Sequence record: PP763253.1
DNA from: Acinetobacter phage Ab1-TPeters
Length of the DNA: 64,000 nt
Reading direction: 5' to 3' (one strand)
Of the stretch, positions 10,439 through 52,447 are shown piece after piece. The position numbers and the translations under genes were made by a program. Within the stretch, counting starts at the first letter, position 1; every line of letters starts with the position of its first letter. The notes beneath the pieces are model-generated. The model made no database searches. It was given only the letters and a program-made list of their open reading frames with translations, and was not told the origin of the DNA.

Positions 10439-11698
10439 ATGACTGCACAAGTAAATGTATCAGAATTTCTGACAAACAACTATGGTGAATACGGTTCTTA
10501 TGTGAACATTCACCGAGTGTCGGCAGGTGTGGATGGGCTCAAGCCCGTTCAACGTCGAATCTTGATTGCTCTTAATCAAGCTGCACGTGGTAAGTTGATT
10601 TCAACAGTAAATGCGATTGGTGCTACAATTGCATATCACCCTTTCGGTGACCAATCGATTGAGGGTGTTATTAATGACATGGCTCGTGTAGGTGTAATTG
10701 AGTCTCAAGGTGACTTCGGTGCTAAGTTGATGGAGAACATTTCTGCAGCTGCTGGCCGATATACTAAATGTGGTTTATCTGCAGCTAAAGCAGATCAGCT
10801 TTTTAACTTGGTTAACTACGTTCCGAAGATTGAAGGTGAAGAGAAGATTGAGCCAATGTATCTTCCAGTTCCAGTTCCATTCGCTTTGGTAACTGGATCA
10901 TTATGCTGGGGACTTGGAATGCTTGATCGTATTCCAGCATTCACTTATGAGTCACTTCTGGAAGCTTATAAACATGATGATCCTACTTTGCTTGAAGCAC
11001 AGTATGGATACATCATGGATAAGACTAAATCAGAATTACACCGACTCTGGAACGAAGGTGTTGGTAGAATCTATCTATCATATCAAGTAATTCGCCCATC
11101 TAAAGATGAGATCTTGATTACTGGTTCAGGTGAGGCATTTACTCCGAAACTTGAATGCTTCAAAAATCTCCAGCTTGATGGTCAGATTTTAGTTACAGAT
11201 GAGTCAGACTCAGACGTAGCTATTCGTATCTCGCGTGTCTCAGGTGCTCGTAAGGTGAATATGGACGAGGTTTATGAGGAAGCTAAACGAGTTGCCTCTC
11301 ACTTCAAACATTACACACTTCGCATGAGCTTAAATGGTAAAGCTCGCCGAGTAAGTATCAAAGCTTGGTTAGAAATCTGTATGAAGTTATACTCAGATGC
11401 CTTCAACAAGGCTAAAGAGAATGACATCACCCAGTTGAATAAATCAATTGAGGTGTTTACACGACTTCCTGAAATCGGTAAGATGGTTATTGCTGGTAAA
11501 TCAAATGAGGAGATTATTTCCACATTGAAGATCGGTGAGGATATCTTATCTGCAGCGTTGAAGAAGTCTATCAACCAGCTACGTCGAGATTCGTTCGAAT
11601 CCGAGATTGAAAGTTTACGTCAAAAGCTGAAAAATGTAGAAGAGTCAACTGTTGAGAAAGAAGTTGTCAAATTCAAAGATTTGTTCAAGAATCTTTAA
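10439..11698 (+). CDS. DNA topoisomerase II DNA-cleavage subunit (GyrA-like; T4 gp52-type)
   Basis: Canonical 'DGLKPVQRRIL' plus an active-site Tyr context 'RYTKCGL'. Start placed at the ATG at 10439; the track start is a non-ATG overlap. A terminator hairpin follows. Confidence 0.75.
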   Translation: MTAQVNVSEFLTNNYGEYGSYVNIHRVSAGVDGLKPVQRRILIALNQAARGKLISTVNAIGATIAYHPFGDQSIEGVINDMARVGVIESQGDFGAKLMENISAAAGRYTKCGLSAAKADQLFNLVNYVPKIEGEEKIEPMYLPVPVPFALVTGSLCWGLGMLDRIPAFTYESLLEAYKHDDPTLLEAQYGYIMDKTKSELHRLWNEGVGRIYLSYQVIRPSKDEILITGSGEAFTPKLECFKNLQLDGQILVTDESDSDVAIRISRVSGARKVNMDEVYEEAKRVASHFKHYTLRMSLNGKARRVSIKAWLEICMKLYSDAFNKAKENDITQLNKSIEVFTRLPEIGKMVIAGKSNEEIISTLKIGEDILSAALKKSINQLRRDSFESEIESLRQKLKNVEESTVEKEVVKFKDLFKNL

Positions 11699-11706
11699 TC
11701 ACAATG

Positions 11707-11742
11707 GACTGGGTCATTAAGGCTCAGTCCACTTTTATTTTA
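11707..11742 (+). terminator. terminator-like hairpin (GGACTGGGTCATTAAGGCTCAGTCC + ACTTTTATTTTAT)
   Basis: After the topoisomerase genes. Confidence 0.55.
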
Positions 11743-11757
11743 TCTGGAGTATTTATA

Positions 11758-13254
11758 ATGAAGCCTAAACTTAAAGTAGGTCTTACTTGCAATGGTGGCA
11801 TGATTCGTGGTATTTTCAAAGAAGAAATGAGCCACGCTAACTCAGCAGTTCTCGACAGTGTTATCTATAAAATGTTAGATCGTTTATACGATGTTACTTT
11901 TTATTTACTCAAACCTGCAGCTATGCGAACTACAGAAAAGCTTCTTATGAAAAAGCAAGCTGAAGGTGACGAATTTGCACTGCGTTTTGATCTAACTTAT
12001 AAAAAGGATGTTTCAGAATATCCTAAACATCTTGATCTAATTTTTGCTGGGCAAGGCTCAGATGTTTTGTTAATGACTGGTAATTTCCAGGGTGGTAAAT
12101 TCACTCATGCATTTAGCTACTTCTACACTTTAGCTATGTATCCAGAAGTCCCAGTGTTTGCTATTCAAACTGATTTTGTGACATATTTCCCAGTTACGGA
12201 AAGTTATGGTCACGGCATCTTTACAGGCATGTTTCCAGACCTTTTTGCGAATCGAGGGATGTTTATTATTCCAATGGGGACAACGCCCCAAGACAAGCAT
12301 ATTTATTTCGAAAGAAAGGCTGCAAACAGCTTACCAACACATAATTTTATGTTTACGTCTGTCGATCAACAGTTTATGATTGAACCAGACTGGAGTGATG
12401 CACGTGAGGTGCCTGAGCAAGTCAAAGGTGTAGCATTTGCTGGTAAGGATAGAACTCAAGGTAATCGACTAGGCTCATTCTTAGCCATGTCAAGAAGTGC
12501 ACCTAACGTTCCATTCTTTTTAATTGGTAAGTGGGATTCACAAGGTGCTGTTAATAATATCAAGAATTTTAGCGGTGGCAATGTAACAACAACTCCAAAG
12601 GCAGTTGACCATCATGAAGTTTTAGATTATTATAACGAATATGGCTTCACTGCTTATCTAAGCTGTGTTGAATATCGTAACTGTGCTACTATTACTTCAC
12701 GTTTTACTGACTCGTTAAAAGCAGGTGCAATTCCATTAATCTGGAAAGATGAGGCTGCTACATTTAAGAAGTACTTTGATCCATCTGTTATTGATCGAAT
12801 TACTGTAGATGAGAACAATGGCGCTGACGTAATAGCTTCACTTCAAGATTACTCAGAACGTGTTGAAATTATTAAATATTTGAAGTCACGTTACGAAGAG
12901 CTTCATAAGTTAGTCATTCCAGAAATTGAGGACTACTTAGTTAAAGTAGTTGAGTCAGCAGATGATCTATTTACTCCAATGACTTCAGCTGAATTAGCTA
13001 AACACATTAAGCACCACTTCATGACTCGAAAGAGTCGCCCATTCAAAGAGGAAGATGCTAATAACATTGCTTGCTCAAATGTCCAGTTCATCGGTAAATC
13101 ATTTGATGAGATTAAACATGCCCTACCTTATTCTACTAAGATTCACATGGGTCTATATGGAGTCGCTCGTGATCGTGAGACTTGGGATGATATGCCAGAA
13201 GCTGTAGATAAAGAAGTTACTCGTTTAATGGAATTCTTGCAAGCTCGTAATTGA
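11758..13254 (+). CDS. hypothetical protein (possible DNA-modification accessory)
   Basis: About 498 aa from the ATG at 11758, after a 'TCTGGAGTA' RBS-like element. No recognisable motif. Located between the topoisomerase and two glycosyltransferases. Confidence 0.45.
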   Translation: MKPKLKVGLTCNGGMIRGIFKEEMSHANSAVLDSVIYKMLDRLYDVTFYLLKPAAMRTTEKLLMKKQAEGDEFALRFDLTYKKDVSEYPKHLDLIFAGQGSDVLLMTGNFQGGKFTHAFSYFYTLAMYPEVPVFAIQTDFVTYFPVTESYGHGIFTGMFPDLFANRGMFIIPMGTTPQDKHIYFERKAANSLPTHNFMFTSVDQQFMIEPDWSDAREVPEQVKGVAFAGKDRTQGNRLGSFLAMSRSAPNVPFFLIGKWDSQGAVNNIKNFSGGNVTTTPKAVDHHEVLDYYNEYGFTAYLSCVEYRNCATITSRFTDSLKAGAIPLIWKDEAATFKKYFDPSVIDRITVDENNGADVIASLQDYSERVEIIKYLKSRYEELHKLVIPEIEDYLVKVVESADDLFTPMTSAELAKHIKHHFMTRKSRPFKEEDANNIACSNVQFIGKSFDEIKHALPYSTKIHMGLYGVARDRETWDDMPEAVDKEVTRLMEFLQARN

Positions 13255-13326
13255 GCTTAAAAGCTGTTTTGCTGTAGGTAGCGAGAGTTGCCTGCAGCTT
13301 TTTATTTAGCATTTACTGGAGTAAGC

Positions 13327-14484
13327 ATGGCTAAAATATTAATAATCTCAGACAACTATGTGCCGTTGCTGAAAGATAAAGTAATGGGTGGAGCTGAAGC
13401 TACTCTCATGAACCAGTTAGCTATCCTAACTGAAAAAGGACATGAAATCCGAGTTATTGCCCCAGATGATTCAGATATTGATTTGAAGCAATTAGTTCCA
13501 ATTGGGGAATATTCTAAAGTTTGGTATAATGAAATTGGTTCAGGTGCTCCACGTACTTTGAATAAATTAACTAACCAAGCTATTGATAATGAGATGCGGT
13601 TCTTTAAACCAGATCTGGTTTTGAATCACCATAAACAACCCTCTGTAATTAAGCATCTGTCCCTCTACTCTAAGACAGTTCCTGTTGTTTCTCATGTTCA
13701 CAATGCACCTATCTTTGGTATGCTAAGTGTTAATACTAATAAGGCTTATGCTCAACTAGCTCAAGCTAGAGGTAAGAACTGGGGAGTATCTGGCTGGTGT
13801 ACTCGAATGAACAACGGTTTAGTTGACGGTTGTGTTACTGATACATTCATTATGCAGATTGCACTTGAACGTAAGACAGTTAATCTTCCTGAATACTCTG
13901 CAGTTACTGTAGGACGTTTCGTTGATTGGAAGAACTTACATACTGGTATTGAAGCAATTACTTCAGGTAAGCTATCTGGCCGAGTTGTAGGCTATTCAGA
14001 AGACCCTGAAGATGACTACTGGTTAACTAAGATTAAGCCACTAGTGGAAGGCAATGAGAACTGGCTGACTGGGATCACTCATGCTGAGACTATGGACGTG
14101 GTATCTAGAGCAGTTGTATTCCTCCAGACTTCTCATTTAGAAACTTCGTCATGTACTCAATTTGAAGCAGCTCAACACGGAGTGCCTTCAATTGTTGTAA
14201 CTAAACGAAATGGACATGGTTCATTTGAAGACTCGTTCCTCCCAGACTGGGCTTATATTGAATTAGATAACTACCGTAAGGGTGGTGCATTTACCACTGA
14301 CAAGTTTGTTGAATTATATAACTTGTGGTTTAATTCAGAAACTGGCACCAGCTTGCCTGACTATACTCAACTTGAAGTTCGTCAAAAATTGGCTGATTAT
14401 ATCTACGATAACTTTAATAAAGAAGTCTGGTATTCTAAGTTCGTAGCTAAAGTTAATGATTCATTCAAAGGACAAATTCTGTGA
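13327..14484 (+). CDS. GT4-family (GT-B fold) glycosyltransferase
   Basis: The N-terminal 'KILIISDNYVPLLKDKVMGGAEATLMNQLAILTEKGHEIRVIAP' is typical of GT4 donor-binding N-domains. Start chosen at the ATG after 'ACTGGAGTAAGC'. Confidence 0.55.
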   Translation: MAKILIISDNYVPLLKDKVMGGAEATLMNQLAILTEKGHEIRVIAPDDSDIDLKQLVPIGEYSKVWYNEIGSGAPRTLNKLTNQAIDNEMRFFKPDLVLNHHKQPSVIKHLSLYSKTVPVVSHVHNAPIFGMLSVNTNKAYAQLAQARGKNWGVSGWCTRMNNGLVDGCVTDTFIMQIALERKTVNLPEYSAVTVGRFVDWKNLHTGIEAITSGKLSGRVVGYSEDPEDDYWLTKIKPLVEGNENWLTGITHAETMDVVSRAVVFLQTSHLETSSCTQFEAAQHGVPSIVVTKRNGHGSFEDSFLPDWAYIELDNYRKGGAFTTDKFVELYNLWFNSETGTSLPDYTQLEVRQKLADYIYDNFNKEVWYSKFVAKVNDSFKGQIL

Positions 14485-15593
14485 ATATTTTAATTGTTCA
14501 CTCCTACTTCCATGAATTAGGAGACCTAAATAAACCAGCTGGAGGTATTGAAACTCACACTGCTGGTTTATATAAAGCACTTACTCTTCTAGGTCATGAC
14601 GTAACTATTGCTGCAACTAAAGACTCTAAGTTACAAAAAGATATTAAATTCTTACCTATTGACAATAATTGTAAAGACGCTTCTGAAGGACGTTATTCTC
14701 AAGTTCTTGGTTACGAAAAGGTTACTCAGGAAATCTTAGATGGTGAATTTGATGTGGTTTTAAATAATAACCCGTCTATCTCAGCAATGAAGATAATTGA
14801 TACAGCTTGCCAATTCGCTGGAATAAAACACTTCTACTTTATTCATCAAGTTATTGAAGGCATTTCAGCTAAGTCAGCTATTGATGCTTTGAATCGCAGT
14901 CAAGCTGAACTTATTGCGGTTAGTTCGTATGTCGCTTCTCAAGTACGAAGTCAAGGATATACTGCTGGGCGGATTAAGGTTGTTAACTCAACCTTTGCTG
15001 AACCTGTTGAAAGTATTGTTCCATTTAGATATGAGAAGCAAGCAGTAATGTGTTGCCGAGTAGTTAAGATCCGTGAAGTTTTGTTAGCTGTAAAGACCTT
15101 TGGTGAACTACTTCCAGACTGGAACTTAATAGTTATTGGAGAAGGAGTAAATCACCCAGCTGAAATTCCTTACTTTAATCAAGTTAAAGAGGAAGCTGAG
15201 AAATATGAGAACGTAGACTTAGCTGGTCGTTTAAATCAGGATCAAGCTCACTGTATCATTGATCAATCTTCAGTCTTCTTGAATTTATGTCACTTCGAAG
15301 CCTTTGGTCTAGCTGCATTTGAAGCTCAGAAGTTAGGTATTCCAGTGGTTCACTTCTATAAGGGAGTTAAATCTGGAGTTAGTGACTTTATTCGTGATGA
15401 AGGACGTTATCCTAACACTGACACTGGTGTTGCAGTAAATGTTTCAGGTCTTCGTGAAACAGCACGTAAGAATGAGCTGAAAGAAGCCATCCTTAAGGCA
15501 ACTATGCTAGACAAAGGTTACATTAAAAAGCACTTCAGCAAGTACAGTTTGAAGTCATTTGCTGATGAATTAATGAGAATTATAGGAAGTTAA
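14481..15593 (+). CDS. GT4-family glycosyltransferase
   Basis: 'MNILIVHSYF...PAGGIETHTAGLYKAL..GHDVTIAA' at the N-terminus. A C-terminal 'EAFGLAAFEAQKLGIPVV' matches the GT4 E-x7-E motif. Confidence 0.65.
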   Translation: MNILIVHSYFHELGDLNKPAGGIETHTAGLYKALTLLGHDVTIAATKDSKLQKDIKFLPIDNNCKDASEGRYSQVLGYEKVTQEILDGEFDVVLNNNPSISAMKIIDTACQFAGIKHFYFIHQVIEGISAKSAIDALNRSQAELIAVSSYVASQVRSQGYTAGRIKVVNSTFAEPVESIVPFRYEKQAVMCCRVVKIREVLLAVKTFGELLPDWNLIVIGEGVNHPAEIPYFNQVKEEAEKYENVDLAGRLNQDQAHCIIDQSSVFLNLCHFEAFGLAAFEAQKLGIPVVHFYKGVKSGVSDFIRDEGRYPNTDTGVAVNVSGLRETARKNELKEAILKATMLDKGYIKKHFSKYSLKSFADELMRIIGS

Positions 15594-15595
15594 GT

Positions 15596-16072
15596 ATGTT
15601 TAATCCAGCTGAAGTGGTTCGTAAATACCGCTCAGCTTGGACTACTAACGAAGAGATCGAAGTAGAACAAGCTGTGTTTAGTAATTCTAAGATTCTGATA
15701 AAGCAGATGATTTACAGACTAAATAGATCACCTATTTCTCTGTTTCAACGACCTACCTTAAGAGATCGTGGTTATTTAATGAGTGAGTCAGAATCTGGTC
15801 ACGGTTACAATTTCTTATCTCCAGAAGGTAAGATGCTCTTGAATTTCAGAGAGATTAATCACATTGAGGCTGATTTCAATGCAATTGTTCGGAATGAAGA
15901 TCGAGTTAAAGACTGTGTATTGGAATTCAGAAAGACTAACAAGAGCTTGTCCGAGATCTCTCAAGAGTTCTTAACTATTAAGCCATTAATAATTGAAGCT
16001 CTTGTCAGCAAGGGCTTGATTGCAAAAGTAAAAGGTAAATATTACCGAATCGATTTATCCAATCCACTTTAA
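15596..16072 (+). CDS. hypothetical protein
   Basis: 158-aa ORF, no motif. Confidence 0.45.
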   Translation: MFNPAEVVRKYRSAWTTNEEIEVEQAVFSNSKILIKQMIYRLNRSPISLFQRPTLRDRGYLMSESESGHGYNFLSPEGKMLLNFREINHIEADFNAIVRNEDRVKDCVLEFRKTNKSLSEISQEFLTIKPLIIEALVSKGLIAKVKGKYYRIDLSNPL

Positions 16073-16082
16073 GAGAATTAAA

Positions 16083-16832
16083 ATGCCTAAATATATTGCT
16101 AACCCAGTTACAGTTGAAGCTACTCCAATGACTCGCCTTGAGTACAATAACCTACGTGGCTGGACTTTACCTTCCGATGAGAACGGTGATGACTTCGGTT
16201 ACTTAGTCACAGCTGATGGTCAAACTAACTGGTTACCTGAAGACCAGTTCAACTTACGTTACCATGCTCTTCCTGAAGCAGCTAAGACTTCCAACACTGT
16301 TACTAATGAATCGTTAGTAAATAAAATTAAGAAAGTTGACTATCTTCAACCAGAAGGTACTACTTTAACTATCTGTATCTTAACTGTTGAGAATGGATTT
16401 ACTTTCCGTGGTGAGTCAGCTTGTGCAGATCCTAATAACTTCAATAAAGAAACTGGTCGTCATTGGGCTTACAAAGATGCATTCTCTAAGATGTGGATGC
16501 CAGAAGGTTACTTACTTCGTCAAAAGATGCATGAGCGTGAACAATTAGGTCCAGATATTTGGGCAGATTTCCGCAGCTTACCAGCTCATGTTTTACGAAT
16601 GATTAAAGAGTGGGTTTGTTTAAATGATGCTACTAAGAAAGCTACTGATTTCTTAGCTCAAGAACAAAATAGTGAAACTGCTAAAGTAGGTATTTCAGAA
16701 GAAGATTGGAATCTACTAAAACAGCAAAATGATGCTCAATACGCTTACTTACGTGCCCTTTTAGCTCGTTTAGAAAAAGCTGGAGTTAGCTTTACTAAAT
16801 TGGATTCTGTGAAACTACCTAGCAGCTCTTAA
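16083..16832 (+). CDS. hypothetical protein
   Basis: 249-aa ORF, no motif. Confidence 0.45.
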   Translation: MPKYIANPVTVEATPMTRLEYNNLRGWTLPSDENGDDFGYLVTADGQTNWLPEDQFNLRYHALPEAAKTSNTVTNESLVNKIKKVDYLQPEGTTLTICILTVENGFTFRGESACADPNNFNKETGRHWAYKDAFSKMWMPEGYLLRQKMHEREQLGPDIWADFRSLPAHVLRMIKEWVCLNDATKKATDFLAQEQNSETAKVGISEEDWNLLKQQNDAQYAYLRALLARLEKAGVSFTKLDSVKLPSSS

Positions 16833-18936: not shown

Positions 18937-18969
18937 TATTTCAAAATAACTACGCGCTGTAGTTTCTTA

Positions 18970-19004
18970 CCTGAGATGTTCCCCGATATCTCAGGTCTTT
19001 TTAT
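18970..19004 (+). terminator. rho-independent terminator (CCTGAGAT-GTTCCCCG-ATCTCAGG + TCTTTTTATTCTTT)
   Basis: About 35 nt downstream of tRNA-Met. Closes the tRNA transcription unit. Confidence 0.65.
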
Positions 19005-22683: not shown

Positions 22684-24207
22684 ATGAATCCACATGTATC
22701 AAAGGATATGAATGAAATCCACCGCCTATTGGATATGAAGATTCTTAAATTGGGTTCTGCAGTTAAATTTAAAATGGAAGATGGCTGGGTTGATACTACA
22801 GCTGGACGTCTTCTAGTTTGGGAAATCTCTGGTTATCTTCCAGATGACTTCTTGAATAAATCAACAATTAAGAAGTTGATTACACATATCAACAGAAACT
22901 ACCCTGCAGCTGAAGCACTTCGTAGATTGAAGCGAGTTCAACAAATCGGATTTGAAACATCTACACAGAGTGGCATCTCACTTTGCTATGATGACTTTAA
23001 ATTCGACTTTGGAATTGACTTTAAAGAAGTTGAAGGTCAATTATCTAAGATGGAAAAAGATGAGCGTGTTGAGTATGCAGATAAGATTATCAATGAATGC
23101 ACAGCACGTTGGTGGAATGAGGTTGATAAGTCTAATCCTCTTCGTAAGATGGGCGTATCTGGAGCACGTGTAACTGATACCCAAGTTCGTCAAATGATTG
23201 TAGCTAAGGGCATCCTTGGTTCAATGGATGGCAGTATTGCTGATTATCCTATTATGGAATCACTTACAACTGGATTGGGAGTTAATAATTACTTCCAGAC
23301 ATGTGGCCCAGCTCGACGTGGTCTAGCTGATAACTTCTTCGTAGTTCCAGCGTCAGGTTACTTTGCTCGTCAGTTAGTTACTGTTGCACGTGACCTTAAA
23401 ATGGTTGAACATGATTGTGAGACAGTTGAGACGATTTACGTTCCAATTGAATTAGCTCGAGGTCGACATGAGTTAGGTAATCCGAATATCTTGACTAAGA
23501 AAGATATTGAGGAACGATCTGGTGAAATGATTAAGATGCGATCTCCAATTACATGTGAGTCAGCTCTAGGTGGAGTCTGTCAAAAATGTGCTGGTTTAGA
23601 TCCAGCTACTGAAGAGTACTGGCGTATTGGAATGGGTTTAGGTACAGCTTCAGGACAACATGTATCAGAACCTACCACTCAGTTAGGTTTACGTGGTAAG
23701 CACTTGTCAGGTGGTGTGACTCTAGCTGGATTGAAGAAGAATGTAAGTAACGTTCTTGCAGATACATTGAAGACACTAGGTGGTAAGGGTACTCACTTGA
23801 TTGGACCTCAACTAAGTAGCGCTAAAGGATTCCATGAGTATTACGCTGAAGAGAAAGATTGGGTCAAAGCTACAACTAATATTATGTTAGTGGTAACTGA
23901 CATCTTTAAGAATGCTGGAACGAACATCGCTTCAGTTCACTTTGAGATGATTCTTCGTGGTTGTACTGATATCGTCCAGCTAGCTGATGGAACTTCAGGT
24001 CTACGTTCTTTGGGTGCTGAGGGTCGAGTTATGCCGATTCATGTACACGGATATGGTCGTAAGGTTCCTAGCTGGTTGAAGCGACTAGGTTACGGTTACG
24101 TAAATGAGACCATTAAGAAAGCGGTTACTACAATGGAGCCGTCACTTGGTGGATATACAGAGCAAATTATTATGGCTCAATTCGAACACTTAGAAGAAGC
24201 TGAATAA
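22684..24207 (+). CDS. multisubunit RNA polymerase beta-prime subunit, C-terminal half (split gene)
   Basis: 'TTAGRLLVWEI..LP' aligns to the beta-prime region around E. coli residue 800. 'ASGQHVSEPTTQLGLRGKHLSGG' matches the trigger-loop/G-loop signature '[21 protein letters not shown]'. No N-terminal zinc finger or NADFDGD motif, so this is a C-terminal fragment encoded on its own. Confidence 0.7.
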   Translation: MNPHVSKDMNEIHRLLDMKILKLGSAVKFKMEDGWVDTTAGRLLVWEISGYLPDDFLNKSTIKKLITHINRNYPAAEALRRLKRVQQIGFETSTQSGISLCYDDFKFDFGIDFKEVEGQLSKMEKDERVEYADKIINECTARWWNEVDKSNPLRKMGVSGARVTDTQVRQMIVAKGILGSMDGSIADYPIMESLTTGLGVNNYFQTCGPARRGLADNFFVVPASGYFARQLVTVARDLKMVEHDCETVETIYVPIELARGRHELGNPNILTKKDIEERSGEMIKMRSPITCESALGGVCQKCAGLDPATEEYWRIGMGLGTASGQHVSEPTTQLGLRGKHLSGGVTLAGLKKNVSNVLADTLKTLGGKGTHLIGPQLSSAKGFHEYYAEEKDWVKATTNIMLVVTDIFKNAGTNIASVHFEMILRGCTDIVQLADGTSGLRSLGAEGRVMPIHVHGYGRKVPSWLKRLGYGYVNETIKKAVTTMEPSLGGYTEQIIMAQFEHLEEAE

Positions 24208-25606: not shown

Positions 25607-25717
25607 TAAGCAATGAGCTTTTGGCCAAGTTATTATTAAATAAGCTTAAATAGCTTATTTTTATTAAATCCTGAATAAAAGGGATTGTACACTCAACACT
25701 CGAGATGGTTTATAACT

Positions 25718-26938
25718 ATGAAAACTATTATCAACGGCAATGTAATCTCTGTCAATGAAGCATTTACCGACCGTATGACACAGTACATTGACGATCGAGC
25801 TATTGATTATTTACGTAAAAACTTAGAAGACTCTAAGGCTACAGGTAAGCAATCAAAGTATGAATATTATTCAAACTTAGCAGATCGAACAAATGACCCT
25901 GTAATGAGAGTCTTCTATGAATTTGCTATGCTTCTTCCAGAAGAGCAAGCAATGAATTTAGCACGTGAGTATTATCAACGTGAAATTCGTTCAGGTACTA
26001 TTTCATATGATCAATATGAAGCAGAAAATGATGAAGGTGAATCAACTGGCGGTATGTTGAATACTAAGTTCTCAGTAAGCGCTGGTTTACTTGATAAAGG
26101 TATTTTCTCATCTATCGCTGCAGGTGAACGAGCTACTCCAGCACGTCAAGTAGAAGTTAACGATTTATTTGATAAGTTATTCTTTGAATATACTACTCGC
26201 CCAGCACGTTTAGTTCTTATTGCACGTTTACTTACAGGTTCTTCAACTGGACGAGTACGTAAGCATGACTCTGGTAAACTAGATTTATCTCGAGTAATGC
26301 ATCGCCTTCCTAAAGAGTACGCTGAAGTTATGGCTCAATATGAGCATTTCCTTGATTCAGGTATTCAAGAAGATGAGATTAGTGCTAAGGATCTTATCGT
26401 AGGTTGGAAACCGACTCAAGAACATCCAATCGAAATTAAGGGTATTTGGAACCACACAGCATGGCGTGATGGTCAACGTGATCTAGAAATTGCTATTCAC
26501 GATATGGTTGGTGACGGTTACGAAACTGTAGCTCAGATCCGTAAATTCTTTAACGTTAATGAAGAACTTATTACGTTTGAAGGAGGTGATCTGGATGAGG
26601 TTAATGAGTCAGCTCAAGAAGCTAACCGAATTAATAAAGCTATCGAGTTTATTCTTGCAGGTCAACCAGCTAAATATTCTGATGTAGTTCGTGCACTTAA
26701 GTTTGTTATTGCTGATAACTTAGCAACTAAATCACCAATGCTTAAGTCTAAATTATTTAAGAATCGTAAACCTAAATACGTTCTTGAAGCTATGTTGAAA
26801 ATGCTTAAGTCTGGGCGAGATGAACAAATCAAACAGGTTCAATTCGCTATTCTAGCTCCAGCATTGACACGTAACGTTAAAGCTAAGAAGATGATGATGA
26901 ACGTTTTGAATGCAAAAGGTCGTCAAGTATTAAAATAA
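25718..26938 (+). CDS. hypothetical protein
   Basis: About 406 aa from the internal ATG (track 25685). Followed by a GGGAGC..GCTCCC hairpin. Confidence 0.45.
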   Translation: MKTIINGNVISVNEAFTDRMTQYIDDRAIDYLRKNLEDSKATGKQSKYEYYSNLADRTNDPVMRVFYEFAMLLPEEQAMNLAREYYQREIRSGTISYDQYEAENDEGESTGGMLNTKFSVSAGLLDKGIFSSIAAGERATPARQVEVNDLFDKLFFEYTTRPARLVLIARLLTGSSTGRVRKHDSGKLDLSRVMHRLPKEYAEVMAQYEHFLDSGIQEDEISAKDLIVGWKPTQEHPIEIKGIWNHTAWRDGQRDLEIAIHDMVGDGYETVAQIRKFFNVNEELITFEGGDLDEVNESAQEANRINKAIEFILAGQPAKYSDVVRALKFVIADNLATKSPMLKSKLFKNRKPKYVLEAMLKMLKSGRDEQIKQVQFAILAPALTRNVKAKKMMMNVLNAKGRQVLK

Positions 26939-26973
26939 TCTAAGGGAGCTAATGCTCCCTGTTGGAGTTATAA

Positions 26974-29112
26974 ATGAGCATTAAAGATAATTTAGAATCA
27001 AAAACGTTCCAAGAAATTGGTGGAATTATTACAGAAAACCACCATGATGAGCAAACACGTGATATCAAATTGATTGCAGAATCATTGAGTAATCCAGATG
27101 AATTAAAAACTTATCTAACCTCTGATGCTGGTGTTGAGCCTATAACAGGCGTTGCTGATGGTAACTATTTCAATGTTCGCTCATCTAGTGATGAGCTATA
27201 TACTGATGAGTATCAGAATGTTAACGGTAGTGCTATTGCGACTGGTAAGCGGTGTTTGAGTGCATTAGGGGTGCAGATCCAAGATAAGCTAGCAAGCACT
27301 ATCAAAGATGTGAGTGGAAAGGATCAACAAGAGATTAATGATGAAAATAAAAATAGTCTATTCCGCGTGAATGGAAAAGCAATTGGTATTGTTCCGTTTC
27401 TGGATATTTCATCTGCCCTGTCTGGATTTTTAAATAGCAAAGATGTGCAAGAAATCTATCTAGACGGTGAATATCTACTGAACTCTCAAATTGTTGTGGA
27501 AGCTGGAGCAACACCTAAAAAGATTTTCTGTTCTGACAGCACAATATTGAAGCCAGCAGTTGCTGGAAGTTTGCCGTTATTTGATCTTTATTCATCGGTT
27601 GAATTTCATAACGCAACTTTTGACTACCAAAATGGCAATTGCTTTACGACTCTGAGATACCGACCGAACTGTGGCCTTGTTAAACTTAGAGATATTAAGA
27701 TAAAAAATATTAAAGACATGGTTAGTTCCTACGGAACAATCATTTTCTTTATTTCGACGGAGGGCAATAAACTAGATATTGATGGCGTTTCATTTGAGAA
27801 TTGTCTAAAATTAGGTAATGGCAGTATTACTGATAGTGCCGGATCATTGAACGGGATCTATTATTACGGGAATACTGGGTTGGTGCGAGGTGAAATTAAG
27901 AATATCTATGCCAAAGAATTTCACAATATCAATGCTTCATCTCAAATTATTATCGAAGATACGGCAGTAGTTTATCCTGCTACCGCAGGAGCATACACTC
28001 CTCTGACTATTGAAAACGTGATTGGTGATGAATTTGGAAAGCGACTAGTAAAGGCTCAATCATCAGGCATTACTTTTAGAAATATTCGCGGCACATCAAC
28101 AACAGGGGACTCACTATCTGTTCTTGGTATTCTGTCAGAGGTTGGTCAGTTTACATCAAACAATAATATTGTTTCTGGTGTGTATGCGCGCGGGAATATG
28201 GATTATGGATATGCAGATTCTGGGGTTAATACACAGGTCGATAACCTCGATATTGATTTATATGGATCAAATGCGCTAAATGATGGAAATCTGCACTTTG
28301 GCGCATATCTCGCATCACAGGCAAGGAAAAACACTATCTCTAATTCAAAAATCAAAGCTCGTAGACCTATAGGGATTAATCCATCGCTGATAGGAGAGCC
28401 CATTGAAGATTTGAACCTTGATAATGTTGATCTTGAACTGACTGATGCTGGAAATGTGTTTATCGACATTCCTGGAAATGCTTCTTTAACAAACGGTGCA
28501 ATTAAGCGATTGACAGCAAAACTGACACTAAGAACATCAACAACAAGAACAAAGGGCGCACAACTTATGAGCACATTTGATGCTCAAAAGAACTACAGCG
28601 ATTTTGACCTTGATGTTAAGTTTGTTGATAAATCTAGTGCTTCATGGAAAGCAGTTCTTGGTGGCTTTCACTATATTAAGAACTTAACATTAAGAGCTAA
28701 GTTTATTTCAGAAGGTGGCTTGGCTCCAGATCAAATTGGTGACTTAGCAACAATCAGTAACTCGTCTAACGTATTTGTGCATGTTGAGAGCGAGCAGAAG
28801 TTCAACCGTGGAATCATTGCTACAGCGAATAACGGTTTTAAAGTTTCAAAAGACTTTAAAATCGGATCAGCCACTATTGGTCAAATTGTAGCGACTGGCG
28901 CAGGAACAAAGTACGAAGTACCAGATCATATTGCTCTATTTAACGGATTAACCTCTGTTAATGAGGTTCTTCGTGGTTTCGGTTCTACGGCACAACGACC
29001 TGCAAACGCAACGATCGGTTTTCCATATTTTGACACAACTCTCGGTAAGATTGTAAATCTTAAAAGTGTAAACCCTAACGTGTGGGTGGATGCCACAGGT
29101 GTTACCGTTTAA
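26974..29112 (+). CDS. tail fiber/tailspike protein (beta-helix-like), paralog A
   Basis: 712 aa. The N-terminal 'KTFQEIGGIITENHHDEQTRDIKLIAESL' is shared with the 29799 gene. Repetitive Gly/Asn/Ser-rich beta-strand periodicity. Confidence 0.55.
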   Translation: MSIKDNLESKTFQEIGGIITENHHDEQTRDIKLIAESLSNPDELKTYLTSDAGVEPITGVADGNYFNVRSSSDELYTDEYQNVNGSAIATGKRCLSALGVQIQDKLASTIKDVSGKDQQEINDENKNSLFRVNGKAIGIVPFLDISSALSGFLNSKDVQEIYLDGEYLLNSQIVVEAGATPKKIFCSDSTILKPAVAGSLPLFDLYSSVEFHNATFDYQNGNCFTTLRYRPNCGLVKLRDIKIKNIKDMVSSYGTIIFFISTEGNKLDIDGVSFENCLKLGNGSITDSAGSLNGIYYYGNTGLVRGEIKNIYAKEFHNINASSQIIIEDTAVVYPATAGAYTPLTIENVIGDEFGKRLVKAQSSGITFRNIRGTSTTGDSLSVLGILSEVGQFTSNNNIVSGVYARGNMDYGYADSGVNTQVDNLDIDLYGSNALNDGNLHFGAYLASQARKNTISNSKIKARRPIGINPSLIGEPIEDLNLDNVDLELTDAGNVFIDIPGNASLTNGAIKRLTAKLTLRTSTTRTKGAQLMSTFDAQKNYSDFDLDVKFVDKSSASWKAVLGGFHYIKNLTLRAKFISEGGLAPDQIGDLATISNSSNVFVHVESEQKFNRGIIATANNGFKVSKDFKIGSATIGQIVATGAGTKYEVPDHIALFNGLTSVNEVLRGFGSTAQRPANATIGFPYFDTTLGKIVNLKSVNPNVWVDATGVTV

Positions 29113-29317
29113 GCATAAATCCCTTCGTGGATTTTTATTTTGTTTGAAAGTGATAAAACTTATATCGAGATTAGGCGTGGAAAATGAAAGCTATGAGATA
29201 GGCTTGAAAAGAAGATAGAAATATTGCAATCTGAAATCAGGACGCTGGCATACCACATCACACACGGCATACATTTGTTAATGAAGCTAATTAAACTTTA
29301 TCGTAGGTAAATTAATT

Positions 29318-29854
29318 ATGTTCAATCTTAAATTTGATTGGCGTATCATTCCGGCAGTAGCTTTCTTAGCTATTGTTGGATGGTTCACCTATAATTACAA
29401 TCACAATGCTTCTAAAGTTGAATCTCAAGCTGATACAATTACTAAATTAGAAGCTACCCTTAAATCAAATAAGGAACTCTATGAAACTAACATCGGGTTA
29501 CTTAAAGAACAAACTGATCTTCTAAACAGAACTGTTGAGATCGAGAGAGGTTACAATGAAAATATTAAATCATTGGAAAAAGTTATTGCTGCTAATAATT
29601 CTACTAATTCCAGCTTGCTCGTCTCTCTCAGAGACCTCAGATCCAGAAATCAGGAAACTCCAGCTTCCACTGAAACCTACATTCGACGAGTCGATGTTCT
29701 CACAAGATCACTCGAAGAAGTATCAAGAGGTTATGGTGAAGCAAGCTCAGACCATTCAAGAGCTAGAATAGAATTTAATAAATGTAAATCCTATCTGGAT
29801 GATATATACAAATCAAACGATTCAGTTGAGGAATCAAAAGATGCCACACATTAA
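29318..29854 (+). CDS. i-spanin (Rz-like: N-terminal TM + periplasmic coiled coil)
   Basis: TM segment 'IIPAVAFLAIVGWFTY' followed by heptad-rich sequence. An o-spanin-like lipoprotein ORF is embedded in the +1 frame. Confidence 0.5.
   Translation: MFNLKFDWRIIPAVAFLAIVGWFTYNYNHNASKVESQADTITKLEATLKSNKELYETNIGLLKEQTDLLNRTVEIERGYNENIKSLEKVIAANNSTNSSLLVSLRDLRSRNQETPASTETYIRRVDVLTRSLEEVSRGYGEASSDHSRARIEFNKCKSYLDDIYKSNDSVEESKDATH
29556..29771 (+). CDS. o-spanin (Rz1-like outer-membrane lipoprotein), embedded in the i-spanin gene
   Basis: Signal peptide and lipobox 'LLLIILLIPAC' then a short periplasmic domain. Lies entirely within 29318..29854 in another frame, the classic embedded spanin architecture. 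The track start 29535 was trimmed to an internal ATG. Confidence 0.45.
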   Translation: MKILNHWKKLLLLIILLIPACSSLSETSDPEIRKLQLPLKPTFDESMFSQDHSKKYQEVMVKQAQTIQELE

Positions 29855-32135: not shown

Positions 32136-32834
32136 GTGAAATTGATTTTAGTAAGACATGGTGAATCAGTAGCTAACGTTAATCCTAAGCTATATGATTC
32201 AATTCCAGATCACGCTATTCCTTTATCTGATGAAGGTAAGCTTCAAGCTAAATTTACTGGAGGTTTAATCAGTCGGTATCTTAAATCACAGATATGTAAT
32301 ATTCCAGTTGAACACTTGATATATTCTCCATACAATCGAACTAAAGAGACAACTGAGATTATCTACGATAACTTAAATGGTATAGGTATTAATAGTTTCG
32401 TTGAATATGTTGGAATTCATGAAATAGAAATCTATAATAATCACCCAGACATGCGTGAGAGTAATTGCTATAATATAGATGAAATGGAGGAATACGGTAA
32501 GTTCTGGTTCAAACGAGGTACTGCTGAGTCATTAGCTGATGTATATAAAAGAGCCAAACAGTTCTTACGTGATCTAATTGATCTGAATTTGCCTCAAGGA
32601 ACTCCAGTAATTGTTGTAAGTCATCGTGTGTTTTTGAGAGTTCTAACTTCTATTCTTGAGGGTCACACTATCAAGAAATTATGTAAATCCGGTATTAACT
32701 TTAACAATGCTGAAGCACGAGTGTATGACTTAGATACTCAAAACTCTAAGTTCGGAGTCCCTGAGATTTTAGGCATTAAGAAACTAAACGAAAACAAGGA
32801 ATTATCTTATGTTGAAAACTGCACTTTTAATTAG
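32136..32834 (+). CDS. histidine phosphatase superfamily protein (PGAM-like)
   Basis: N-terminal 'LILVRHGESVAN' RHG catalytic motif. Confidence 0.55.
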   Translation: MKLILVRHGESVANVNPKLYDSIPDHAIPLSDEGKLQAKFTGGLISRYLKSQICNIPVEHLIYSPYNRTKETTEIIYDNLNGIGINSFVEYVGIHEIEIYNNHPDMRESNCYNIDEMEEYGKFWFKRGTAESLADVYKRAKQFLRDLIDLNLPQGTPVIVVSHRVFLRVLTSILEGHTIKKLCKSGINFNNAEARVYDLDTQNSKFGVPEILGIKKLNENKELSYVENCTFN

Positions 32835-35524: not shown

Positions 35525-36073
35525 ATGACTACCTTAATTAATATCTTTGGTGGACCTAGTGCTGGTAAAACAACACTTTCACTGGGTCTAACCTACGCCT
35601 TAAAGATGGCTGGATATAAAGCTGAATACGTTCACGAAGTAGCTAAATACCCAGCTTTAGTCAATGACATCAAGTACTTTGATTCCCAGTATCATGTCAC
35701 TAACAATCAACATAAGCTTCTTTCTGCTTACTTAGATAATGGTGATCTTGATTTCGTTATTACTGATGCTCCTTTACCATTGGGTTTAATCTATGGTGAG
35801 CATTATGGTAAACTCGACAAGATCACCAAAGAAGCTATTGAAGATCTTTGCTGTTCAGTTCGCTGTAAATCAGTGGTAAACATCCTCAAAGTATATGATC
35901 CAGAAGTAGCTTACGATCCTGTTGGTCGATATCAAATTCAGACAGAAGCTCACGAAATTCACCGTAAAATGACTAAGTTTATCGCTGGAGTAGATCACAT
36001 TCAGATCGGTAAACTTAACGATGAAGTAATCAAAGATCTCGTAACCAATTTAATAAAGAGACATTTTAAATGA
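35525..36073 (+). CDS. P-loop NTPase/kinase (AAA_28/NadR-kinase-like)
   Basis: N-terminal 'INIFGGPSAGKTTL' Walker A. Small size (182 aa). Directly upstream of the dNMP kinase. Confidence 0.45.
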   Translation: MTTLINIFGGPSAGKTTLSLGLTYALKMAGYKAEYVHEVAKYPALVNDIKYFDSQYHVTNNQHKLLSAYLDNGDLDFVITDAPLPLGLIYGEHYGKLDKITKEAIEDLCCSVRCKSVVNILKVYDPEVAYDPVGRYQIQTEAHEIHRKMTKFIAGVDHIQIGKLNDEVIKDLVTNLIKRHFK

Positions 36074-52436: not shown

Positions 52437-52447
52437 AGGTGAATAAG

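Follow-up and report, generated by a model that had tools for sequence, protein, structure and literature searches.

Three open reading frames lie in succession at positions 11758–15593 of the window (the whole 64-kb stretch of phage DNA that was analysed), all on the + strand. The first (11758–13254) encodes a 498 aa BGT-like DNA glycosyltransferase when the start is taken as ATG 11758; a GGAG is found 9 nt 5′ of that ATG. The second, termed GT4-a (13327–14484), starts at ATG 13327, here too with a GGAG upstream, and encodes a GT-B family 4 glycosyltransferase of 385 aa. The third, GT4-b (14481–15593), is a 370 aa paralogue of GT4-a, and its open reading frame overlaps that of GT4-a by 4 nt. 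Both GT4 genes are intact. The predicted role of the BGT-like protein is base-proximal sugar attachment, that of GT4-a is glycan extension, and GT4-b would be a second glycan-extending transferase.

A terminator-like hairpin of 11 pairs followed by CTTTTATTTT (11705–11731, + strand) separates the topoisomerase II A-like gene from the BGT-like gene; strong elements of this hairpin-plus-T-run type number only four on the + strand of the 64 kb. Another terminator-like hairpin, of 11–12 pairs followed by TTTTTATTTA (13271–13298, + strand), is between the BGT-like gene and GT4-a. A 516 aa version of the BGT-like open reading frame, starting at ATG 11704, was rejected as an overcall because this ATG falls within the terminator-like hairpin.

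The genes 5′ of the trio are a homologue of the RP13 replicative helicase, RusA, a 5′–3′ exonuclease, a Rad50/SbcC-like ATPase, and the large and A-like subunits of topoisomerase II. On the 3′ side are tRNA-Arg and tRNA-Met, followed by RNA polymerase pieces. Directly 3′ of GT4-b is an open reading frame (15596–16072, + strand) for a basic protein of 158 aa (pI 9.2) with no known function, which gave no family match in Pfam, PHROG and NCBIfam searches. It is kept at the same position in contig L020 and is missing from Acinetobacter phage vB_AbaM_3098. It may be an accessory gene, and its membership of the system is uncertain.

The 498 aa protein alone yields nothing in single-sequence Pfam, PHROG or NCBIfam searches. 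The family profile of this protein matches the T4 beta-glucosyltransferase (BGT) with an E-value of 2.6e-15, and hhalign gives a 97.65% probability with an alignment that begins at BGT residue 1. The AF2 model (pLDDT 92.5, pTM 0.91) has as its closest solved structures both T4 DNA glucosyltransferases. A GT-B catalytic core homologous to T4 BGT covers approximately residues 1–364, and an all-helical C-terminal domain, absent from T4 BGT, covers approximately 365–498. Five residues are invariant in the family, R232 and R315 among them, and the near-invariant residues include D139 and R237. D139, R232, R237 and R315 align with T4 D100, R191, R195 and R269, respectively; T4 D100 is cited as the catalytic residue of BGT (bioRxiv 10.1101/2023.12.21.572611). 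The protein is thus a T4 BGT homologue, with the catalytic Asp and UDP-binding Arg residues kept. The analysis shows this homology, the fold and the residues, while acceptor, donor and linkage are inferences. T4 BGT works on 5-hmC, and a 5-hmU activity of the BGT-like family remains an inference. The family is small, with only 26 representatives among 1.84 billion proteins. Only 3 of 27 family members reach the Pfam family PF09198, and these weakly; the window protein itself matches no Pfam family.

GT4-a and GT4-b were assigned by Pfam scores that exceed the gathering cut-offs. GT4-a scores 33.8 bits with Glyco_transf_4 (cut-off 28.5). GT4-b scores 45.8 with Glycos_transf_1 (cut-off 26.4), 45.5 with Glyco_transf_4 (28.5) and 31.4 with GT4-conflict (26), and is also above the cut-off for Glyco_trans_1_4. 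An E-x7-E motif is present in the C-terminal domain of both, ETSSCTQFE at E272–E280 of GT4-a and EAFGLAAFE at E273–E281 of GT4-b, and is conserved in the orthologues of both; in the GT4-a orthologue alignment (mean column identity 71%) it is invariant. The N-terminal motif is GGAE in GT4-a, and GT4-b has a GGIE motif. The GT4-b orthologue profile matches GT4-a with an E-value of 2.3e-22, which shows their paralogy. For both proteins the best PDB sequence match is tetrahydrobiopterin glucosyltransferase (9v0l for GT4-a), and GT4-a has a weak match to the phage HY126 glycosyltransferase 9iqz. ORF112 of Ralstonia phage RP13 is a GT4-b homologue (26% identity). A comparison with 5.8 billion clusters gave, at E ≤ 1e-5, no relatives of the GT4s other than phage proteins with the same gene order. 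No close characterised LPS or teichoic-acid relatives were found, and every NCBIfam match is far under its cut-off. That these enzymes extend a DNA-bound sugar is an inference; the substrate is untested and a non-DNA acceptor could apply.

A preliminary description of this DNA, made from sequence alone, had placed two tandem GT4 enzymes and a 498 aa protein among replication genes, between topoisomerase II and the RNA/tRNA region. The open reading frames, Pfam matches and neighbours bear this out. Its statement that one glycosyltransferase has a clean E-x7-E held in part, as both GT4s carry the motif. Its view of the 498 aa protein as unannotatable failed; profile searches of the three proteins lead to T4 BGT for this one and to GT4 Pfam families for the others, and the number of glycosyltransferases is corrected from two to three. 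It had also named characterised LPS or teichoic-acid enzymes, as closest relatives of the GT4s, as an outcome that would refute it, and this outcome was not met.

The trio is present in the same order in vB_AbaM_3098 (62%, 53% and 48% identity for BGT-like, GT4-a and GT4-b) and in the metagenomic contig L012 (34%, 46% and 41%). Because order and sequence are conserved, these are not chance open reading frames. Topoisomerase II precedes the BGT-like gene in the window, vB_AbaM_3098, L012, L005 and Maribacter phages. The BGT-like gene adjoins a 5-hmdU DNA kinase gene in L012 and in coliphage EP_H11, is beside dCMP deaminase and a dUTPase in L005, and is beside RNA polymerase subunits, a nucleotidyltransferase and ribonucleotide reductase in L016. 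In Maribacter phages a TS-fold gene is directly 3′ of it. A shorter BGT-like homologue is present in EP_H11 and IME392. Over the contigs that show recognisable neighbours, to which this survey is confined, those neighbours are phage replication or nucleotide-metabolism genes.

Two side observations concern vB_AbaM_3098 and amount to circumstantial support only. Its 55.6-kb record, labelled “complete”, is colinear with window positions 1918–48900 only, and commercial kits failed with its DNA.

The only TS-fold gene in the window (53180–54229, + strand) is about 38 kb away from the glycosyltransferase genes. It encodes a 349 aa protein (Pfam Thymidylat_synt, 1.1e-15), predicted to be a dUMP hydroxymethylase that forms 5-hmdUMP. 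On its 5′ side (52439–53170, + strand) is a P-loop nucleotide kinase (AAA_28/dNK-like, Pfam), a predicted 5-hmdUMP kinase. On its 3′ side (54243–54980, + strand) is an HD-domain YfbR-like 5′-deoxynucleotidase (Pfam YfbR-like, 3e-15; NCBIfam 5′-deoxynucleotidase), predicted to deplete a canonical dNMP, probably dTMP. In E. coli ThyA numbering the TS-fold enzyme has C146, R166, S167, D169 and N177. Position 143 holds Asp, as it does in the aligned hydroxymethylases of PhiW-14, Det7 and T4 (gp42). N177 is of the uracil-specific type. The D169N rule marks 5hoC synthases (PMC13326640), and by this rule the enzyme, which keeps D169, is not a 5hoC synthase. The base predicted from these active-site residues is 5-hydroxymethyl-uracil and not 5-hydroxymethyl-cytosine. 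The best phage relatives of the enzyme are in RP13, EP_H11, IME392, ViI-like phages and PhiW-14. In PhiW-14 the dUMP hydroxymethylase gene is followed by a dNMP kinase gene. EP_H11 and L012 have homologous kinases beside the TS-fold gene cluster and an HD nucleotidase next to the TS-fold gene; in both, these genes are within a few kb of the BGT-like and 5-hmdU DNA kinase genes. Two points count against the hypermodification reading set out below: the distance of this gene from the trio, and the lack in the window of an enzyme that would supply dUMP (dCMP or dCTP deaminase, dUTPase).

The reading favoured here, with moderate confidence, is that the trio serves DNA hypermodification, with an oligosaccharide built on a base that takes the place of thymine (5-hmdU). 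It is based on homology and gene context, and there is no nucleoside chemistry for this phage or for vB_AbaM_3098. The TS-fold enzyme would convert dUMP to 5-hydroxymethyl-dUMP, the adjoining kinase would phosphorylate the product, and the adjoining HD 5′-deoxynucleotidase would help clear the canonical nucleotide that competes with it. The A-family polymerase of the phage would then put 5-hmdU where T would be. The basis for this step is inference, from the active-site residues, the gene context and the relatives. After replication, 5-hmdU would be flipped out by the BGT-like enzyme and the first sugar transferred from a UDP-sugar to the hydroxymethyl oxygen; inversion as in T4 BGT would give a beta linkage, and the product would be a base-J-like nucleotide. 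The second and third sugars would be added by the paralogous GT4s, which belong to a retaining transferase family. What has been shown for them is GT4 membership with intact motifs; that they act on a DNA-bound sugar is inferred by analogy with the GT4-like transferases of DLP3 and RL38JI. As no NDP-sugar-making enzyme is encoded in the 64-kb window, the donors would likely come from host pools, e.g. UDP-Glc, UDP-Gal or UDP-GlcNAc. If this is correct, the bulky glycan would guard the phage DNA against restriction enzymes and other nucleases, which is probably its purpose. It should be noted that the window is part of a genome, and a kinase or linker-forming enzyme could lie beyond it.

The preliminary description had favoured the addition of sugar to DNA over the synthesis of a polysaccharide, with a hydroxymethyl-pyrimidine from the TS-fold enzyme as the possible acceptor. 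All computational tests that were run support this, at the level of homology and gene context and without nucleoside chemistry. Synteny with the TS-fold gene is seen in the relatives described above. The pyrimidine had been left general, with hm-dC as the T-even example, and is refined to a predicted 5-hydroxymethyl-uracil. The T-even alpha/beta pair offered as a model is likewise refined, the best analogues of the GT4s being the GT4-like enzymes that transfer the second and third sugars in DLP3 and RL38JI (PMC13326640).

The wider group may not rely on direct O-glycosylation of 5-hmdU, because a 5-hmdU DNA kinase adjoins the BGT-like gene in L012 and EP_H11, and the characterised relatives use a linker and phosphate. 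The leading alternative, possible and ranked below the favoured reading, is of the SP-15/YerA41/Carin-5 type. A 5-hmdU DNA kinase outside the window would activate 5-hmdU, a non-sugar linker, possibly with phosphate, would be attached, and the three glycosyltransferases would build on the linker or phosphate and not directly on the hydroxymethyl oxygen. The window polymerase and TS-fold enzyme group with RP13, EP_H11 and IME392, which are listed with Carin-5, YerA41 and SP-15 (PMC12686479), and Carin-5 thymidine bears an 88-Da linker, phosphate, two hexoses, HexNAc and a 216-Da residue. The kinase next to the BGT-like gene in L012 and EP_H11 is of the PF18723 type, a WbqC gene is found in L012 and RP13, and a PIG-L gene is near the glycosyltransferases in L012, vB_AbaM_3098 and the related contig L019. 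Against this, even unfiltered HMM searches detected no 5-hmdU DNA kinase homologue in the 64-kb window or in the 55.6-kb record of vB_AbaM_3098, and the kinase slot of L012 is empty in the window. PIG-L, WbqC, epimerase and nucleotidyltransferase genes are all missing from the window, and the glycosyltransferase genes proposed for Carin-5/YerA41 (one KDO-transferase-like) adjoin the polymerase gene, i.e. a different location.

A split of functions appears unlikely and ranks below the linker reading. Here the BGT-like enzyme alone would modify DNA, giving a mono-glycosylated base, and the targets of the GT4s would lie elsewhere, e.g. a protein of phage or host, a small molecule or a glycan of the host envelope; or the acceptor base would not be 5-hmdU. 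GT4 enzymes act mostly on lipids, small molecules and glycans, and GT4-b has a further match to PF20706 (“GT4 in conflict systems”). The BGT-like gene may be a separate transcription unit, since terminator-like hairpins separate it from both neighbours, and several family members have no adjacent GT4 genes (Maribacter phages, L016, L014, EP_H11). However, the GT4 pair remains directly 3′ of the BGT-like gene across 34%–63% identity, the GT4s have no close cellular relatives, and the GT4-like enzymes of DLP3 are demonstrated DNA-glycan extenders. The sole TS-fold gene in the window has a uracil-type active site. Least favoured, and very unlikely, is that the trio makes or alters a polysaccharide or glycoconjugate (host surface conversion, virion protein glycosylation) and that it lies among the replication genes only by chance. 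Phages are known to carry glycosyltransferases that convert the host surface or glycosylate virions, and the Pfam/NCBIfam similarity is only to generic GT4 enzymes (glycogen synthase, BshA, EPS and LPS enzymes). Yet the lead enzyme is structurally closest to the two T4 DNA glucosyltransferases, with catalytic residues kept, and its relatives repeatedly co-locate with 5-hmdU DNA kinase, TS-fold, deaminase and dUTPase genes. There are no flippase, polymerase, lipid-carrier or structural genes near the trio, and a pattern scan of 185,579 bacterial and archaeal genomes detected no BGT-like family member.

The favoured hypermodification reading can be compared with four known systems. T4 BGT (CAZy GT63, Pfam PF09198; PDB 1BGT/1C3J/1J39) shares profile-level homology, the catalytic Asp and the UDP-binding Arg residues with the window protein. 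Its gene is also among phage replication/nucleotide-metabolism genes, and T4 bgt adjoins the TS-fold hydroxymethylase gene 42. However, the identity is only about 13%, and T4 BGT has 351 aa compared with 498 aa in the window protein, whose extra helical domain is about 135 aa. The acceptor is 5-hmdC in T4 and predicted to be 5-hmdU in the window, where the donor sugar is unknown. T4 has no pair of GT4 genes, and its alpha- and beta-glucosyltransferases add single sugars. Base J of kinetoplastids (beta-D-glucosyl-hydroxymethyluracil) is of the same chemical type as the first product predicted here, in which the 5-hmU hydroxymethyl in DNA would carry an O-linked sugar. It differs in being a single glucose only, and in its synthesis after replication by JBP thymidine hydroxylases and JGT, whereas the window 5-hmdU is predicted to arise at the nucleotide level via the TS-fold enzyme. 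JGT is grouped with GT-A fold enzymes (bioRxiv 10.1101/2023.12.21.572611), in contrast to the GT-B fold BGT homologue of the window.

The “RP13-like” set comprises RP13, IME392 and EP_H11 together with YerA41, Carin-5 and SP-15 (PMC12686479). RP13 DNA is reportedly heavily modified, which hinders sequencing, and oligosaccharide-substituted thymidine is found in YerA41, Carin-5 and SP-15 (PMC12686479, PMC9023294, PMC5977210). The glycan-building enzymes of this set have no experimental assignment. Among phages, the window DNA polymerase and TS-fold enzyme match RP13, IME392 and EP_H11 best, and EP_H11 has the same gene order as the window: kinase, TS-fold, HD nucleotidase, primase-like, helicase, PolA. 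EP_H11 and IME392 carry the BGT-like homologue and RP13 the GT4-b homologue. The identities are low (about 32% for the polymerase, 38%–46% for the TS-fold enzyme), EP_H11 encodes a 5-hmdU DNA kinase that the window lacks, and the measured modifications of SP-15, YerA41 and Carin-5 contain a linker and phosphate.

The poly-glycosylated 5-hydroxycytosine systems of DLP3, RB69 and RL38JI (PMC13326640) differ in the base, which is cytosine (5hoC, with the diagnostic D169N), compared with D169 and N177 in the window, which predict 5-hmdU. Their base-proximal transferases have MshA-like or epimerase-like folds and are not BGT homologues, they have their own UDP-arabinose or UDP-Galf pathways, whereas the window has no sugar-nucleotide enzyme, and their GT4s have no detectable sequence similarity to the window GT4s at E ≤ 1e-5. 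DLP3 gp76 and gp77 are confirmed by experiment and RL38JI gp237 is predicted; BshA, PimA and tetrahydrobiopterin glucosyltransferase are among the structures that the GT4-like enzymes of these systems match (PMC13326640). The likeness is in the overall design: a nucleotide kinase gene beside the TS-fold gene, a TS-fold enzyme leading to a hydroxylated pyrimidine nucleotide, one base-proximal transferase, and GT4-like GT-B enzymes for the second and third sugars.

All genes of the window are on one strand, and three consecutive + strand genes occupy positions 11758–15593. The first (11758–13254, +) encodes a 498 amino acid protein and has an ATG at 11758 with a GGAG sequence 9 nt upstream. A 516-aa version of this open reading frame is an overcall; its ATG falls inside a terminator-like hairpin at 11705–11731. 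The second gene, termed GT4-a (13327–14484, +), encodes 385 aa and its ATG at 13327 is preceded by a hairpin and a GGAG sequence. The third, GT4-b (14481–15593, +; 370 aa), overlaps GT4-a by 4 nt. Upstream of the trio are a replicative helicase homologue, RusA, an exonuclease, a Rad50-like ATPase and two topoisomerase II subunits; downstream are tRNA-Arg and tRNA-Met and then an RNA polymerase beta′-like fragment. The preliminary description, which placed two GT4 glycosyltransferases and a 498-aa protein amid replication genes, is correct in this respect and the surroundings are as it described. An Rfam search shows nothing beyond the two tRNAs, and megablast did not find a close phage genome.

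Only four strong terminator-like hairpins with a T-run are present on the + strand in the 64 kb, at 11705–11731, 13271–13298, 18969–18996 and 54238–54261. Two of these flank the gene for the 498-aa protein, one follows tRNA-Met, and one is directly 3′ of the gene for a TS-fold enzyme (53180–54229, +). Given these hairpins, it is possible that the two DNA-modification genes are transcriptionally insulated or timed. The last hairpin covers the called TTG start (54243) of the adjacent HD-domain gene, thus this start is probably wrong.

Several other open reading frames in the window may be mentioned. Directly 3′ of GT4-b is a basic 158-aa open reading frame of unknown function (15596–16072, pI 9.2), which is found at the same position in a related contig (L020) and is absent from Acinetobacter phage vB_AbaM_3098. 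The gene that follows it (16083–16832) has N4 gp49/Sf6 gp66 and crAss001_48 (“Sequestin”) domains. The RNA polymerase beta′-like fragment (22684–24207) carries Rpb1 domains 3–5 and is followed by three short open reading frames; large open reading frames of 417, 712 and 673 aa, matching no Pfam family, are found at 25685–31820. The latter may also belong to a multisubunit phage RNA polymerase that has been split. Another related contig (L016) encodes beta′ and beta subunits that can be recognised as such. A NADAR-domain protein (40035–40508) and a histidine-phosphatase-superfamily protein (32136–32834) are also encoded.

The 498-aa protein shows no match in single-sequence searches of Pfam, PHROGs, NCBIfam and the PDB, and no Pfam family is found at E ≤ 1. 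Searches with tblastn yield a 63% homologue in vB_AbaM_3098 and 22% homologues in Maribacter phages Molly and Colly, the latter annotated as “beta glucosyl transferase”. When 1.84 billion representative proteins were searched exhaustively with an HMM, only 26 family members were found, mostly 460–515 aa in length. A profile of 27 sequences detects the T4 DNA beta-glucosyltransferase, BGT (1BGT, E-value = 2.6e-15, BGT residues 47–338); a profile of 5 sequences missed it. An hhalign comparison with BGT gives a 97.65% probability, with the alignment starting at BGT residue 1.

An AlphaFold2 model built from 25 sequences (pLDDT 92.5, pTM 0.91) has T4 BGT as its top-ranking Foldseek match, and the protein has a GT-B two-Rossmann fold that is closest to that of T4 BGT. 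(An initial model from 3 sequences, with a pLDDT of 49.7, was unusable and was discarded.) Among the 27 family members, R232 and R315 belong to the five invariant residues, and D139 and R237 are near-invariant. Positions D139, R232, R237 and R315 align with T4 D100, R191, R195 and R269. D100 is the catalytic residue of T4 BGT (bioRxiv 10.1101/2023.12.21.572611), and Arg191, Arg195 and Arg269 bind the UDP phosphates. The 498-aa protein is a relative of T4 BGT as shown by homology, fold and catalytic residues; its activity is inferred. The view in the preliminary description that it could not be annotated is therefore not upheld, as both the family profile and the structure model identify it.

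An additional all-helical domain at residues ~365–498 is absent from T4 BGT and its role is unknown. Only 3 of the 27 family members reach PF09198 (best E-value = 0.0012), and the window protein itself does not match it. Since homology is seen only at the profile-to-sequence and profile-profile levels and PF09198 is not reached, the BGT-like proteins are treated as a sister family of T4 BGT that is outside PF09198 as now defined.

The two GT4 proteins are paralogues: a profile of GT4-b orthologues matches GT4-a with an E-value of 2.3e-22. GT4-b exceeds the Pfam gathering cut-offs for both PF00534 (45.8 vs 26.4) and PF13439 (45.5 vs 28.5), whereas GT4-a is above the cut-off for PF13439 (33.8 vs 28.5) and below it for PF00534 (22.0 vs 26.4). 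The preliminary description noted a clean E-x7-E motif in one glycosyltransferase; this held in part, in that the motif is present in the C-terminal domain of both, at E272–E280 of GT4-a (ETSSCTQFE) and E273–E281 of GT4-b (EAFGLAAFE). It is kept in the orthologues, where the second Glu is invariant.

Among 5.8 billion clusters, a threshold of E ≤ 1e-5 leaves GT4-b with only three relatives, namely itself and homologues of 74% and 48%, all on phage-like contigs with an unchanged gene order. ORF112 of Ralstonia phage RP13 is a 26% homologue. With respect to the NCBIfam equivalogs for LPS, teichoic-acid and EPS glycosyltransferases, GT4-b does not reach any curated cut-off; the best match is Agl16 (34 bits vs a cut-off of 575), the rest are likewise far below, and GT4-a has no NCBIfam match. 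Thus the finding that would have refuted the proposal of DNA modification, closest relatives that are characterised LPS or teichoic-acid enzymes, was looked for and is not met. The best PDB sequence match of both proteins is the tetrahydrobiopterin glucosyltransferase. GT4-like enzymes resembling BshA and this glucosyltransferase are experimentally confirmed as the second and third arabinosyltransferases acting on the DNA of phage DLP3, and similar enzymes in RL38JI are predicted glucosyltransferases (PMC13326640).

The window has a single TS-fold gene (53180–54229), flanked by genes for a P-loop nucleotide kinase (52439–53170) and an HD-domain YfbR-like 5′-deoxynucleotidase (54243–54980). Kinase, TS-fold enzyme and nucleotidase are the usual set by which a non-canonical dNTP is produced while its canonical counterpart is depleted. 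The enzyme was aligned with E. coli ThyA, T4 gp42, PhiW-14 gp230 and the sequences from Det7, RP13, EP_H11 and Colly, using the residue rules of PMC13326640. It retains C146, R166, S167 and D169 (motif NRSND). A D169N change is diagnostic for a 5-hydroxy-dCMP synthase (PMC13326640), and a 5hodCMP synthase of the RB69 gp48/DLP3 gp80 type is rejected as D169 is kept. Position 177 is Asn, as in uracil-specific enzymes; a dCMP hydroxymethylase is rejected on this basis, as T4 gp42 has Asp. Position 143, which is tied to hydroxymethylation of the product as opposed to methylation (PMC13326640), is Asp as in T4 gp42, PhiW-14 gp230 and Det7, and is Leu in ThyA. The best phage relatives are RP13, EP_H11 and IME392, followed by ViI-like phages and a PhiW-14 gene annotated as a deoxyuridylate hydroxymethyltransferase. 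On the basis of its residues, relatives and flanking genes, the enzyme is predicted to form 5-hmdUMP, a product that has not been assayed. The earlier suggestion of a hydroxymethyl-pyrimidine is thereby supported, with 5-hmdU as the inferred base.

Three separate P-loop nucleotide-kinase-like proteins are encoded in the window, at 35525–36073 (AAA_28), 36070–36663 (DNMK-like) and 52439–53170 (AAA_28/dNK). This is more than phosphorylation of 5-hmdUMP alone would require.

In vB_AbaM_3098 the trio is found in the same order after topoisomerase II, with identities of 62%, 53% and 48%. In a metagenomic contig (L012), topoisomerase II, PIG-L, WbqC, a methyltransferase-like gene and a fourth GT4-like gene precede a 5-hmdU DNA kinase (PF18723), the BGT-like gene, GT4-a, GT4-b and three short open reading frames; then follow dCTP deaminase, an epimerase, the TS-fold gene, YfbR, a kinase, two more genes and a helicase. 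Contig L005 displays the order topoisomerase A-like gene, dCMP deaminase, dUTPase and BGT-like gene. In L016 the BGT-like gene lies between the RNA polymerase subunits and a nucleotidyltransferase-cupin gene, after which comes ribonucleotide reductase.

Coliphage EP_H11 has a shorter BGT-like protein of 359 aa (family HMM E-value = 1.3e-7), whose gene is directly 5′ of a 5-hmdU DNA kinase gene (E-value = 4.4e-35). Beyond these lie genes for a kinase, the TS-fold enzyme and YfbR, then two short genes, and then those for a primase-like protein, a helicase and PolA; the order from kinase to PolA is close to that of window positions 52439–61988. The BGT-like protein of phage IME392 is 98% identical to that of EP_H11. 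The neighbours in these relatives show that the BGT-like family recurs alongside genes for the metabolism of deoxyuridine and 5-hmdU.

In both EP_H11 (11343–15958) and IME392 the BGT-like protein and the 5-hmdU DNA kinase, upstream of kinase, TS-fold gene and YfbR, are annotated as hypothetical. From sequence alone, this block is inferred to be a compact thymidine-hypermodification cluster in cultured coliphages, which the GenBank record does not label in this way. In Molly and Colly (Colly_1 69830–74589) the order is topoisomerase II, UDP-glucose dehydrogenase, a nucleotide-sugar epimerase, the BGT-like gene and a uracil-type TS-fold gene. This gene context raises the possibility of uronic acid transfer to 5-hmdU in these marine phages.

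The accessory genes vary: a PIG-L deacetylase is present in vB_AbaM_3098 and L012, WbqC in L012 and RP13, and the nucleotidyltransferase-cupin gene in vB_AbaM_3098 and L016. The glycan therefore probably differs between relatives. A search of the window did not find dCMP/dCTP deaminase, dUTPase, PIG-L, WbqC, epimerase, UDP-glucose dehydrogenase or nucleotidyltransferase. No 5-hmdU DNA kinase was detected in six-frame translations of the window or of vB_AbaM_3098 (phmmer and unfiltered HMM); as the window is a partial genome, absence from the whole phage is unproven.

The A-family polymerase of the window has its best match in RP13, at 32% identity across 95% of the query, followed by IME392 and EP_H11; these three also lead for the TS-fold enzyme. 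Next for the polymerase are the Rhizobium RHph_TM30 group and then LIS04, phiLo, SP-15 and Carin-5; YerA41 is not among the listed matches. These phages are the set named “RP13-like” and listed with YerA41, Carin-5 and SP-15 (PMC12686479). By the relationship of its polymerase and TS-fold enzyme to this group, the window is RP13-like; a glycan on virion DNA is inferred. Thymidine in Carin-5 carries a linker, a phosphate and an oligosaccharide (PMC12686479), that of YerA41 has a substituent of ~1 kDa with oligosaccharide character, and for RP13 heavy modification of the DNA and difficulty in sequencing it are reported.

According to its authors, commercial kits did not work for extracting the DNA of vB_AbaM_3098. 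Its 55.6-kb record (PV081573.1), labelled complete and circular and with all 102 CDS annotated as hypothetical, is colinear only with window positions 1918–48900 and has no homologue of the window's polymerase (PolA), ligase, TS-fold enzyme or helicase. It appears to be a partial assembly of a larger phage, possibly with hypermodified DNA. The kit failure and the partial record fit DNA that is modified and hard to handle, which is circumstantial evidence only.

Relatives are scarce in databases. A homologous-protein search with the 27-sequence alignment yields only the three proteins already known. Pattern scans for the BGT-like and GT4-a families show no relatives in JGI metagenomes or GTDB genomes, and in IMG/VR only the distant homologue of Maribacter phage Molly. 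All other family members whose source was checked come from Logan assemblies of raw reads or from a few cultured phages. This scarcity may reflect an under-sampling of phages with heavily modified DNA, and a published suggestion to that effect is consistent with the scans.

We favor, with moderate confidence, the reading that the trio builds a glycan on 5-hmdU in DNA. Homology, fold, catalytic residues, synteny and co-occurrence are shown. In the proposed process, the TS-fold enzyme, kinase and nucleotidase would provide 5-hmdUTP in place of dTTP for incorporation by the phage polymerase. The BGT-like enzyme would then place a first sugar on the hydroxymethyl oxygen; if, like T4 BGT, it is an inverting enzyme, a beta linkage and a base-J-like nucleotide would result. 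GT4-a and GT4-b, from a family of retaining transferases, may add up to two further sugars. As no NDP-sugar enzyme is encoded in the window, the donors are likely to be UDP-sugars of the host. Acceptor, donors, linkages, order and biological role are all inferred.

The main alternative, which remains possible, is that the sugars are attached through a linker or phosphate, as in the chemistry of SP-15 and Carin-5, a route that would depend on enzymes encoded outside the window, a 5-hmdU DNA kinase or others. The kinase gene adjoins the BGT-like gene in L012 and EP_H11, which favors this alternative, but it is undetectable in the window and in the vB_AbaM_3098 record. It is also possible that the BGT-like enzyme alone acts on DNA: terminator-like hairpins bracket its gene and several family members are without adjacent GT4 genes. 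The conserved trio argues against this. A role outside DNA, in surface polysaccharide or virion glycosylation, is rejected as unlikely given the BGT homology of the lead enzyme and the lack of polysaccharide export or structural genes nearby.

Glycosylated bases are a major route by which phages pass restriction enzymes and some CRISPR systems, and glycosylating enzymes including T4 BGT are now tools for mapping modified bases. Phage DNA glycosylation, multi-sugar chains built by GT4-like enzymes (a recent finding) and measured oligosaccharide-modified thymidine are already known. What appears to be new is the rare, distinct family that is sister to T4 BGT and has an added domain, together with the conserved module of a BGT-like gene and two GT4 genes beside topoisomerase II, and the predicted action of a BGT-like enzyme on 5-hmdU, not 5-hmdC. 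For YerA41, Carin-5 and SP-15 there are measurements of thymidine bearing an oligosaccharide, but no assembly enzyme has been assigned, and a literature search of incomplete coverage did not find a paper that assigns enzymes to phage thymidine glycosylation, an absence that is unproven. The cluster offers a compact three-gene candidate set for assembly of such a glycan, in which the base-proximal enzyme can be identified. If a BGT-type enzyme takes 5-hmU as its acceptor, it might serve as a reagent for labelling 5-hmU or base J precursors whatever the surrounding sequence. Phage vB_AbaM_3098, the closest relative in culture, is a candidate for therapy of extensively drug-resistant Acinetobacter baumannii; hypermodified DNA would explain its extraction and assembly problems and bears on the assessment of safety and host range.

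T4 BGT (GT63/PF09198) uses UDP-Glc to glucosylate 5-hydroxymethylcytosine in duplex DNA, whereas the TS-fold residues in the window predict 5-hmU as the acceptor instead. For the extension step, the second and third arabinosyltransferases of DLP3 are a direct GT4-like precedent. A bolder reading, which we see as slightly less likely than not, is that in this phage lineage thymine is replaced by a glycan-bearing 5-hydroxymethyluracil, with the first sugar placed directly on the hydroxymethyl group by the sister BGT family, not recognised before, and extended by the GT4 enzymes to a di- or trisaccharide. If true, no enzymes would have been assigned before to the O-glycosylation of thymidine in a bacterial virus, and these would be the first of the BGT family to act on 5-hmU. 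The modified base would then be a phage counterpart of the base J of kinetoplastids, formed by a GT-B enzyme that is unrelated.
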